NCBI GenBank assembly: GCA_021848345.1
Contig: JAJZUV010000011.1
Coordinates: 8,080 to 72,079, forward strand
Direction of reading: 5' to 3'
DNA from: Pseudomonadota bacterium
Lineage (GTDB): Bacteria > Pseudomonadota > Gammaproteobacteria > Burkholderiales > Burkholderiaceae_C
DNA: 64,000 nt
Shown: in pieces, positions 18,356 through 21,106 of the stretch
Layout: each line of letters begins with the position of its first letter
Position numbering within the stretch: position 1 is the first letter of the stretch
The notes under the pieces: generated by a model
The model's input: the letters and a program-made list of their open reading frames with translations, nothing else
Databases searched by the model: none
What the model was told of the DNA's origin: nothing
Position numbers and translations under genes: made by a program

Positions 18356-21106
18356 TCAGGCGCTTGCCGCCAGGCGCTGTTCGCACCAGGCCTCGGCCGC
18401 GCGCAGCGCCGCGTCCACGCCTTGCGGACGGGTACCGCCGGCCATCGCGAAATCGGGCCGGCCGCCGCCCTTGCCGCCGACCTCCCGCGCCGCCTCGTTG
18501 ACCAGTTCGCCGGCCTTGAGCCGGCCCACCAGGTCGGCGGTCACGCCGGCGGCCAGTTGCACCTTGTCGCCGTCGGCGCTGGCCAGCAGCACCACGGCCG
18601 ACTTCAGGCGCGCCTTGATCTGGTCGACCACGCTGCGCAGCGCGGCCGCGTCGGCGCCGTCCAGGCGCGCCGCCAGCACGCGCACGCCGCCCACGTCGCG
18701 CGCCGCATCGGCCAGCGCCAGGCCGCGGGAGGCGGCGTCGCGCGCCTTCAGCGCCGCGAGCTCCTTGTCCTGGGCGCGCATCTGTTCCAGCAATTGCGCG
18801 GCGCGCCGCGGCAGTTCGTCCTGCGGGGTCTTGAGCAGCGCCGCCAGCTCGGCCAGCTCGGCGCCCTGGCGCTGCGCCAGGAGCAGCGCACCCAGGCCCG
18901 TCGTGGCCTCGATGCGTCGCACCCCGGCGGCCACCGCGCCCTGCCCGGTCACGCGCAGGCTGCCGATGTCGCCGGTGCGCGCCACGTGGGTGCCGCCGCA
19001 CAGTTCGCGGCTGGCGCCGATGTCGAGCACGCGCACCTCGTCCCCGTATTTCTCGCCGAACAGCATCATCGCGCCGGTCTTGCGAGCCTCGTCGATCGGC
19101 AGCACCCGGGCCAGCGTGGGCGTGTTGAGCAGCACCTGCTCGTTCACCCACTGCTCGATGCGCCGGATCTGCTCGTCGCTGATCGGCGCGTCGTGGGAGA
19201 AGTCGAAGCGCGTCTTGTCCGCGTCCACCAGCGAGCCCTTCTGCTGCACATGCTCGCCCAGCACGATGCGCAGCGCCTTGTGCAGCAGGTGGGTCGCGCT
19301 GTGGTTTCGCATGGTCGCCAGCCGGCGCTGCGCATCGACCTCGGCGTCGATCGCCTGCCCGAGTTCCAGGCTGCCGCCTTCCAGGCGCCCGTGGTGGCCG
19401 TACACGTCGGCCTGCAGCTTCTGCGTGTCGTGCACGACGAAGCGCACGCCGGCCGCGGCCAGCACGCCGCTGTCGCCCACCTGACCGCCCGACTCGGCGT
19501 AGAAGGGCGTGCGGTCCAGCACCACCACGCCCTCCTCGCCCGCGTTCAGGCGGCTCACCGCGCTGCCGCCCGCGTACAGGCCCAGCACGCGCGCGCCCTG
19601 CACGCGCAGGTGTTCGTAGCCCTCGAAGCGCGTGGCCTCGCCGGAGTACTCCAGCGCATCGGCCATGCGGAAGCGTCCGCTGGCGCGCGCCTGCTCGCGC
19701 TGGCGCTGCATGGCCTGTTCGAAGCCGGCCTCGTCCACCGCCACGTTGCGCTCGCGGCACACGTCGGCGGTCAGGTCCAGCGGAAAGCCGTAGGTGTCGT
19801 ACAGCGTGAAGGCCACCTGCCCGCCCAGCACGGCCTCGCCGCGCCCGCGCATGGCGTCGAGTTCGCCCTCGAGGATGCGCATGCCGTTGTCCAGGGTCTC
19901 GCCGAAGCGCCGCTCCTCGGCCTCCAGCACCTCGGCGATGCGCGGCGCGGCCTGCGCGAGTTCGGGGTAGGCCTGGCCCATCTCGGCCACCAGGTCGCCC
20001 ACCAGGCGGTGGAAAAAGGGTTCGTGCCGGCCCAGCTTGTAGCCGTGGCGCAGCGCGCGGCGCGCGATGCGCCGCAGCACGTAGCCGCGCCCCTCGTTGC
20101 CGGGGATCACGCCGTCGGTGATCAGGAAGGCGCAGGCGCGGATGTGGTCCGCGATGACCTTCAGCGACACGTGGCCGAGGTCCTGGCACCCGGTCTCGCG
20201 GGCGGCCGCGGCGATCAGGCGGCGGAACAGGTCGATCTCGTAGTTGCTGTGCACGTGCTGCAGCACGGCGGCGATGCGCTCCAGGCCCATGCCGGTGTCC
20301 ACGCAGGGGCGCGGCAGCGGCTTTTGCGCGTAGCTGACGGTCTTCCAGGTGTCGCCGTGGCGCTGCACCTGCGCGATGGCGCCGTCGCGCTCCAGCGCCG
20401 CCTTGGCCGCGGTGGCTTCCAGTTCGCTGGCGAAGCTCTGCTCGCCGGCGACGCTGCGCTCGAACTGCATGAACACCAGGTTCCAGATCTCGATGTAGCG
20501 GTCGCCGTCCTCCTCGGGGGAGCCGGGAGGTCCGCCCCAGACGTCCGGACCGTGGTCGTAGAAGATCTCGCTGCAGGGGCCGCAGGGGCCGGTGTCGGCC
20601 ATCTGCCAGAAGTTGTCCGAGGCGTAGCGCGCGCCCTTGTTGTCGCCGATGCGGATGATGCGCTCGTGCGGCACCCCGATCTCGTCGGCCCAGATCGACC
20701 AGGCCTCGTCGTCCTCCTGGTAGACGGTCACCCACAGCTTGTCCTTGGGCAGGCCGTAGACCTCGGTGAGCAGTCCCCAGGCGAAGCGGATGGCGTCGCG
20801 CTTGAAGTAGTCGCCGAAGCTGAAATTGCCCAGCATCTCGAAGAAGGTGTGGTGGCGCGCGGTGTAGCCGACGTTTTCCAGGTCGTTGTGCTTGCCGCCG
20901 GCGCGCACGCAGCGCTGCGCGGTGGTGGCGCGGCTGTAGGGACGCTTGTCCTGGCCCAGGAACACGTCCTTGAACTGCACCATGCCCGAGTTGGTGAACA
21001 GCAGCGTCGGGTCGTTGCCGGGAACCAGCGGCGACGAGGCCACGCGGGAGTGGCCCTGGGAGGCGAAGTAGGCGAGGAATTTCTCGCGGATGTCGGATAC
21101 GTTCAT
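18356..21106 (-). CDS. alaS: Alanine--tRNA ligase (916 aa, with an internal extra segment)
   Basis: [54 protein letters not shown]. Confidence 0.98.

Follow-up and report, generated by a model that had tools for sequence, protein, structure and literature searches.

The modules inserted into the cores of aminoacyl-tRNA synthetases have been catalogued by Douglas et al. (Nucleic Acids Res 2023, PMC10810186). Insertions nested in β-hairpins are described there for other class II enzymes; the entry for alanyl-tRNA synthetase (AlaRS) is a family-wide helical loop of 30–40 residues. AlaRS has also provided conserved signature indels (CSIs) that serve as taxonomic markers, for example for the Spirochaetes (PMC3726837). 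The architecture of AlaRS is among the most uniform of all synthetases, and the hairpin that precedes motif 3 is of equal length in organisms ranging from bacteria to humans.

Here we describe an AlaRS in which this hairpin is interrupted by 38 extra residues. The gene lies in a window of 64,000 nucleotides from a contig of the Burkholderiales (JAJZUV010000011.1), to which all positions below refer. The insert is a further member of an established class, the lineage-specific insertion modules of synthetases. Like the elements catalogued by Douglas et al., it is contiguous and conserved and sits within a loop of the core of a class II enzyme, and with 38 additional residues, a fixed length and a confidently predicted fold it exceeds the average of at least 30 residues that defines such elements. 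However, the catalogued modules define whole synthetase families, whereas this insert is confined to two Thiomonas genera, one contig of a metagenome-assembled genome (MAG) and one metagenomic lineage. The site itself is otherwise nearly invariant in length, both in 77 of 80 metagenomic genes and in ∼400 Pseudomonadota genomes with the exception of one contaminated MAG. The insert resembles the CSIs in that it is an indel of fixed length, lies in a conserved region and marks a clade. The published CSIs of AlaRS are however only 2 and 4 residues long and are located elsewhere in the protein, while the insert is 38 residues long, domain-forming and imperfectly clade-exclusive.

The insert lies at the tip of the hairpin preceding motif 3

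The alaS gene, encoding an alanine–tRNA ligase of 916 amino acids, occupies positions 18356–21106 on the minus strand, its translation starting with the methionine codon at 21106. The product contains the Pfam domains tRNA-synt_2c (PF01411, E = 4e-209), tRNA_SAD (PF07973, E = 5e-13) and DHHA1 (PF02272, E = 1e-18), which together make up the full domain architecture of a bacterial class II AlaRS, and it aligns with the catalytic fragment of Escherichia coli AlaRS (3HXU) with an E-value of 3e-201 in phmmer. As alaS is single-copy in the source genome and the sole AlaRS gene there, the enzyme with the insert must be the one in use.

An earlier reading of this DNA, made from the sequence alone, had quoted 45 residues at positions 20321–20455, without giving the strand, and had estimated that about 38 of these were in excess of canonical AlaRS. 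The quoted residues are the exact translation of the minus strand and correspond to residues 218–262 of the protein. In the phmmer alignment to 3HXU, the 39 residues from 222 to 260 (20327–20443, minus strand) face a single E. coli residue, so that on balance 38 residues are gained; the flanking pairs are query 221 with E. coli 224 and query 261 with E. coli 226. The alignments to all 12 AlaRS chains in the PDB, bacterial as well as human, break at query residue 220–221, and the 552 positions of the Pfam model are stretched over 590 query residues. The insert is in frame and, as had been noted, uses the codons of its host: the third-position GC content (GC3) of the Thiomonas insert is 0.95, compared to 0.96 for the host.

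The insertion site is the tip of the β-hairpin directly preceding motif 3. It is bounded on one side by the strand that contains Asn209 and Val211, and on the other by the segment with Asp270 and Gly272, in the first part of motif 3 (residues 269–285; 20252–20302, minus strand). In relatives that lack the insert, the hairpin has the canonical spacing. The four residues align with Asn212, Val214, Asp235 and Gly237 of the E. coli enzyme, which we take to be residues of the alanine site or catalytic site, and they are invariant in 30 aligned sequences. The conserved alanine-site residues and the motif 3 of a bacterial class II AlaRS are therefore present in the insert-bearing protein.

The insert is fixed in two Thiomonas genera

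An insert of the same length was found in 24 of 24 genomes of the source GTDB genus, which includes T. delicata DSM 16361, and in all three genomes of a second GTDB genus (T. intermedia), whose group also includes T. arsenitoxydans and T. bhubaneswarensis. It is thus fixed in two GTDB genera that contain named Thiomonas species. The occurrence in all 24 genomes, in cultured Thiomonas isolates and in a single-copy alaS means that the insert is not a product of chance or of assembly.

Beyond these two genera the insert is rare. A profile of the insert matched no other genus among 201 genera of the family, and no carriers were detected among 400 genomes of the class. Among 400 genomes of the order there was one carrier besides the source genome, the MAG G956, which is described below. 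Weak profile matches of ∼20 bits in other genomes fell in open reading frames without a Pfam family and were no stronger than chance would produce in 400 genomes. When the hairpin without the insert was used as the query, one unbroken match per genome was obtained in ∼400 Pseudomonadota genomes, except for the source genome and one contaminated MAG. Two genomes flagged as unpublished (G184 and G749) are counted solely in the tallies of genomes with no insert. None of 80 unrelated metagenomic AlaRS genes carried the insert; the spacing was canonical in 77, and the other three had 3–5 extra residues. Within a set of 5.8 billion proteins, ∼45 clusters at 90% identity bear it.

The insert is thus a lineage-restricted decoration of AlaRS, in agreement with the sequence-only reading, which had also put it forward as a taxonomic marker. 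This second proposal holds for the most part: both Thiomonas genera are positive and ∼200 other genera of the family are negative, so that the insert largely marks Thiomonas sensu lato, but diverged copies are present outside the clade, in one MAG contig and in one distant lineage. Metagenomes from acid mine drainage could readily be screened with it for Thiomonas sensu lato. The practical importance of the insert is modest for now. In the literature we found no paper describing this AlaRS insert, which is apparently undescribed. It is also neither common nor predicted to be disordered, and its length and core positions are conserved.

The insert is predicted to fold as a mini-domain

An isolated segment of 60 residues was modelled by AlphaFold2 as strand-helix-strand-strand with a mean pLDDT of 89.7. 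In a model of the 469-residue N-terminal part of the protein, built on a shallow alignment, the core was poorly predicted (mean pLDDT 68.9); the insert had pLDDT values of 73–92 and the same elements as in the isolated segment. Strand 1 (residues 215–225; 20432–20464, pLDDT ∼96) extends a β-strand of the host domain. It is followed in both models by an alanine-rich helix (residues 228–240; 20387–20425), by strand 2 (residues 244–250; 20357–20377) and by strand 3 (residues 253–263; 20318–20350), which returns to the host chain; all four elements are encoded on the minus strand. The β-α-β pattern that had been read from the sequence is thus recovered in the models, with a further strand, and the segment is predicted to be folded rather than disordered. 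Read from the sequence, each face of the sheet seems to have conserved hydrophobic residues, and one of the two may therefore be packed against something else.

According to these models, the insert is confidently predicted to fold as a self-contained β-α-β-β (‘EHEE’) mini-domain of ∼50 residues, which would lengthen both strands of the hairpin before motif 3 and add a helix and a third strand to it. As the entry and exit strands are neighbours in the EHEE topology, such a module would fit at the tip of a hairpin with the core left undisturbed.

Foldseek searches with the insert model returned nothing at E ≤ 0.001, the top rows being designed EHEE mini-proteins. In an exhaustive structural search of 48,161 chains, every match scored below Z ∼8, the level that is typical of common arrangements arising by chance with this tool. 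The first rank was taken by the designed EHEE binder 5VLI chain C (Z 5.9, rmsd 1.0 Å, 39 of 39 residues) and the second by the SPOR domain of CwlC (1X60; Z 5.4, rmsd 3.7 Å over 55 residues), followed by the EHEE design 5JG9 (Z 5.4, rmsd 1.6 Å over 43 residues). The SPOR domain of RlpA (6I0N) was at rank 10 with Z 4.4, and the remaining matches were assorted ferredoxin-like halves. The insert and the EHEE designs (5VLI chain C, 5JG9 and 8SHM) share the strand-helix-strand-strand order and a length of ∼40 residues, and they superpose closely, with an rmsd of 1.0–1.6 Å over 39–43 residues when the predicted model is used for the insert. In contrast to the insert, which is natural and embedded in a hairpin, the designs are synthetic and free-standing, and their sequence identity to it is 7–20%. 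The predicted topology is therefore one that protein designers reached independently for minimal stable proteins.

The insert is under purifying selection and probably precedes the split of the two genera

The pooled dN/dS of the insert was 0.33. It was lower in the near flanks (0.09) and in the remainder of the N-terminal domain (0.12). The length of the insert is the same in all of the ∼45 clusters even though sequence identity drops to 30–40%, the one exception being a 2-residue duplication in the helix of the insert of a single species. When the four types of insert were compared, ∼12 positions were invariant or nearly so. These comprise the hydrophobic core and several charged positions, the latter being glutamate, lysine and arginine residues of surface type that are retained across very diverged copies. 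The invariance of these charged residues hints at a constraint that goes beyond mere foldability.

When the tree was built from the backbone without the insert, the two Thiomonas genera grouped as a single clade (support 88/92). The origin or acquisition of the insert would predate the separation of these genera, and the fixed length of the insert appears to have been kept since under purifying selection ∼3-fold weaker than that on the host domain. Judged from these sequences, all carriers may go back to one origin, as no well-supported branch speaks against it.

The insert probably forms an exposed module outside the catalytic core

Our favoured reading, which we hold to be probable, is that the segment is a translated, in-frame module of the class II catalytic domain: an exposed plug-in that is ancestral to Thiomonas and may be moved by recombination. 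The plug-in would leave the catalytic core undisturbed, with all of the alanine-site residues intact, and would most likely be a solvent-exposed appendage that stands outside both catalysis and recognition of the G3:U70 pair. Its role would then be either that of a nearly neutral, entrenched decoration or that of a lineage-specific docking surface.

Several observations bear on whether the module is connected to tRNA recognition. tRNA-Ala(CGC) keeps G3:U70, and its sequence is identical in the insert-bearing T. delicata (G012) and in four genomes without the insert that belong to four families (G027, G034, G038 and G039). Where tRNA-Ala does vary, at pairs 5:68 and 6:67, the variation bears no relation to the insert. 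Counted from its residues, the insert is acidic to neutral overall, with a net charge of about −1 to −2. We also looked for co-variation with the presence of the insert, using 17 carriers, 9 relatives without the insert and 76 metagenomic sequences. Among the 469 N-terminal backbone residues, the sole co-varying position was Glu216 (20459–20461, minus strand), which adjoins the insert; it is glutamate in 17 of 17 insert-bearing sequences and asparagine or aspartate in most of those without the insert. Taken together, the unchanged tRNA, the charge and the restriction of co-variation to the adjoining residue speak for a separate, protruding module rather than for a new tRNA-recognition element; we count the last of the three as a sign that the module is independent of the host domain. 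The RNA-binding surface that had been suggested from the sequence finds no support in these observations.

An alternative that we regard as rather unlikely, though it deserves serious weight, is that the mini-domain is a functional binding surface and has been kept because it contacts tRNA-Ala or a protein; the latter could be a trans-editing factor, an elongation factor or a different domain of AlaRS. The purifying selection on the insert agrees with this, as do the charged residues that are invariant across copies only 30–40% identical, the retention of the module in at least three backbones and the presence of RNP/RRM-like and SPOR-like half-folds among the weak structural matches. However, a net charge of ∼−1 to −2 is unlike that of typical RNA-binding patches, tRNA-Ala(CGC) is the same with and without the insert, co-variation is limited to residue 216, and no candidate for the partner was identified. 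The invariant charged residues mean that the module may still have a role in protein docking.

A diverged copy in G956 suggests exchange between alaS alleles

Two sets of sequences outside Thiomonas carry a related insert. The first consists of three metagenomic protein clusters (P0046–48) with a homologous insert of the same length. Their backbones are 57–60% identical to Thiomonas AlaRS and form a long separate branch, while the inserts are up to 53% identical to those of Thiomonas. No local recombination signal was found in the flanks of these three. A metagenome scan for this lineage retrieved generic AlaRS genes only, which provided the survey of loop length given above.

The second is the MAG G956, which belongs to another Burkholderiales family and has 5% contamination. 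It contains two alaS alleles on separate contigs. The allele on contig C156 lacks the insert; that on C56 has a very diverged copy of the same length at the same site, 29–36% identical to the other inserts. The backbone of C56 nonetheless shows identities of 98% and 89% with C156, and of 94% and 92% with G031, a genome of the same genus that lacks the insert. The divergent tract extends over codons 215 to ∼270, and its junctions are sharp and lie within conserved motifs. The GC3 of the C56 insert is 0.29, compared to a mean of 0.60 for the gene (standard deviation 0.09; minimum 0.33 in windows of equal size). The encoded protein is a singleton among the 5.8 billion proteins. A GC3 far below that of the gene, together with near-identical alleles that lack the insert, suggests that the insert of C56, a single contig of 3.7 kb from one MAG, was brought in by recombination, as a patch from a donor of low GC content. 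No such donor was found; the JGI metagenome contigs contained no relative. On the favoured reading of an exposed plug-in, the module and a few flanking codons could, judging from this one contig, be transferred from one alaS allele to another through homologous recombination within the highly conserved flanks.

These data could be taken further, to mean that the insert is a mobile or exchanged coding cassette that persists through recombination at its conserved flanks and not because it helps the enzyme. The low GC3, the sharp junctions and the congeners without the insert, 92–98% identical at the protein level, in the case of G956 all point in this direction, as does a homologous insert in a backbone of 57–60% identity when the inserts themselves are up to 53% identical; this latter relationship may however merely reflect saturation of insert identity near 30–45%. 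Against it, the Thiomonas insert is fixed and has taken on the composition of its host, and the two genera are united in the backbone tree (88/92), as vertical descent predicts. Furthermore, the source genome holds no second copy either as DNA or in any reading frame, no donor was found, and G956 is represented by a single contig. We therefore give this explanation a limited chance only, though one that is not small.

A combination of the two alternatives, in which a horizontally exchangeable mini-domain passes from alaS to alaS via ultra-conserved flanks and is retained as a new docking surface, appears quite unlikely to us. Such a cassette would resemble an intein in occupying a conserved site, but would do so without splicing. 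If the import into G956 is real, it also shows that essential genes can exchange short stretches of coding sequence across lineages.

No parent of the insert is detectable

The sequence-only reading had likened the insert to half a SPOR repeat. What stands of this is the topology, which is that of the first β-α-β-β of the RNP-like SPOR fold: 1X60 and 6I0N superpose weakly, with Z-scores of 5.4 and 4.4, and a helix-capping pattern is shared locally. The resemblance is not borne out by other comparisons. The Pfam SPOR model, which recovers two true SPOR proteins in the source genome, gave no match to the insert or to 24 orthologous inserts at E-values up to 10, and neither did any other Pfam family. 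Alignment with hhalign to 21 SPOR domains from Thiomonas and its relatives gave a probability of 5% over 19 columns, which fell to 2.3% with a broader insert profile. With Pfam negative and profile probabilities this low, the pattern noted earlier is a generic motif of strand, helix cap, helix, glycine and strand, and no evidence of descent. The designed EHEE proteins are also closer in structure than the SPOR domains.

A full SPOR domain (PF05036) has the order β-α-β-β-α-β and ∼70–76 residues, whereas the model of the insert gives β-α-β-β and ∼50 residues. The insert is thus half-sized, lacks the second helix and the fourth strand, and has no significant sequence or profile similarity to SPOR. 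In addition, SPOR domains are periplasmic glycan binders, while the host of the insert is a cytoplasmic synthetase. We consequently judge it very improbable that the insert was taken from another gene as a degenerate piece of a SPOR domain, or of a different RNP-type domain, even with the two structural matches and a 19-column local pattern match to the second β-α unit of SPOR in its favour, not least as the sequence and structure alignments land on different halves of the SPOR domain and no match was obtained among 1.84 billion representative proteins. Descent from SPOR is largely refuted at the level of detectable homology.

Searches for other parents were similarly negative. The profile of the 24 inserts had no match among those 1.84 billion representatives, where the AlaRS of Thiomonas itself is probably placed under an insert-less cluster head. 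The ESM Atlas features of residues 216–262 retrieved AlaRS fragments only, with scores of at most 0.82, and a six-frame profile and DNA search of the source genome gave only weak chance matches to GC-rich or alanine-rich sequence. The insert therefore provides a clean natural case of a new mini-domain in an essential enzyme whose parent is undetectable.

Inteins begin with a nucleophile, end in His-Asn, are followed by a nucleophile and have at least ∼130 residues. The insert has no Cys or Ser at its start and no terminal His-Asn, the residue that follows it is proline, and its length is 38–45 residues; as had been stated in the sequence-only reading, no intein feature is present (residues 218–263). 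Although a highly conserved site of an essential gene is interrupted, as it is by inteins, the idea that the insert is an assembly error, an intein, a MITE or REP, or another intervening element can be put aside with near certainty, as isolates and dozens of independent assemblies contain it, it is far too short for an intein and lacks the residues of one, and it has no other copies in the genome, no notable terminal repeats and no features of a repeat element.

An origin by internal duplication was also considered. A family of 27-nt direct repeats ties the insert to motif 3 at 70–74% identity; we treated this as a chance similarity, as the DNA is GC-rich and alanine-rich and the profile probability of the insert against the rest of AlaRS was 0.1–0.2%.

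Variation of the AlaRS insert among carriers

A homologous insert of equal length was found in the metagenome-derived AlaRS proteins of clusters P0046–P0048 (921–922 aa), with an identity to the T. intermedia insert of up to 53%. The backbones that carry it share only 57–60% identity with Thiomonas AlaRS. The sole length variant of the insert among the carriers seen was a two-residue Ala-Gln duplication within its helix, in the Thiomonas genome G015 (locus L024, positions 2107–2292). In a second genome of the genus, G022, the alaS matches on contig C2 (L025) are split over two reading frames and overlap near residues 191–195; this is a frameshift or indel error in an assembly of 6 contigs.

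The metagenome-assembled genome G956, from another Burkholderiales family and with 5% contamination, holds two alaS alleles, one with the insert (contig C56, L122) and one without (C156, L124). The insert copy is strongly AT-rich, with a GC3 of 0.29 against a gene mean of 0.60 for C56; the stretch compared with L124 and with L125 from the insert-less congener G031 was L122 positions 991–1160. The allele pair looks like a recombination patch from elsewhere or else strain heterogeneity.

Sequence context of the insert and of tRNA-Ala

Among 80 unrelated AlaRS genes, three are 3–5 residues longer at the same hairpin tip, namely those at L179, L199 and a third metagenomic locus; small expansions are therefore tolerated there in other lineages. 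Within the window, three in-register 27-nt direct repeats (20258–20284, 20369–20395 and 20438–20464; 70–74% identical) each encode a nonapeptide with Glu-Arg, respectively in motif 3, within the insert and ahead of it. They probably reflect chance in coding DNA rich in GC and alanine. Two very long ORFs overlap alaS in other frames, one of 963 aa (18278–21169, forward strand) and one of 797 aa (18342–20735, reverse strand); neither is taken as evidence of a gene, such overlap being typical of high-GC DNA.

The tRNA-Ala(CGC) of the same genome lies outside the window (contig C35, 234849–234924; L078). The 5′ side of its acceptor stem consists entirely of G, and two of the pairs, G3:U70 and G5:U68, are wobble pairs. 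This acceptor stem is also found in an insert-less family (genome G040).
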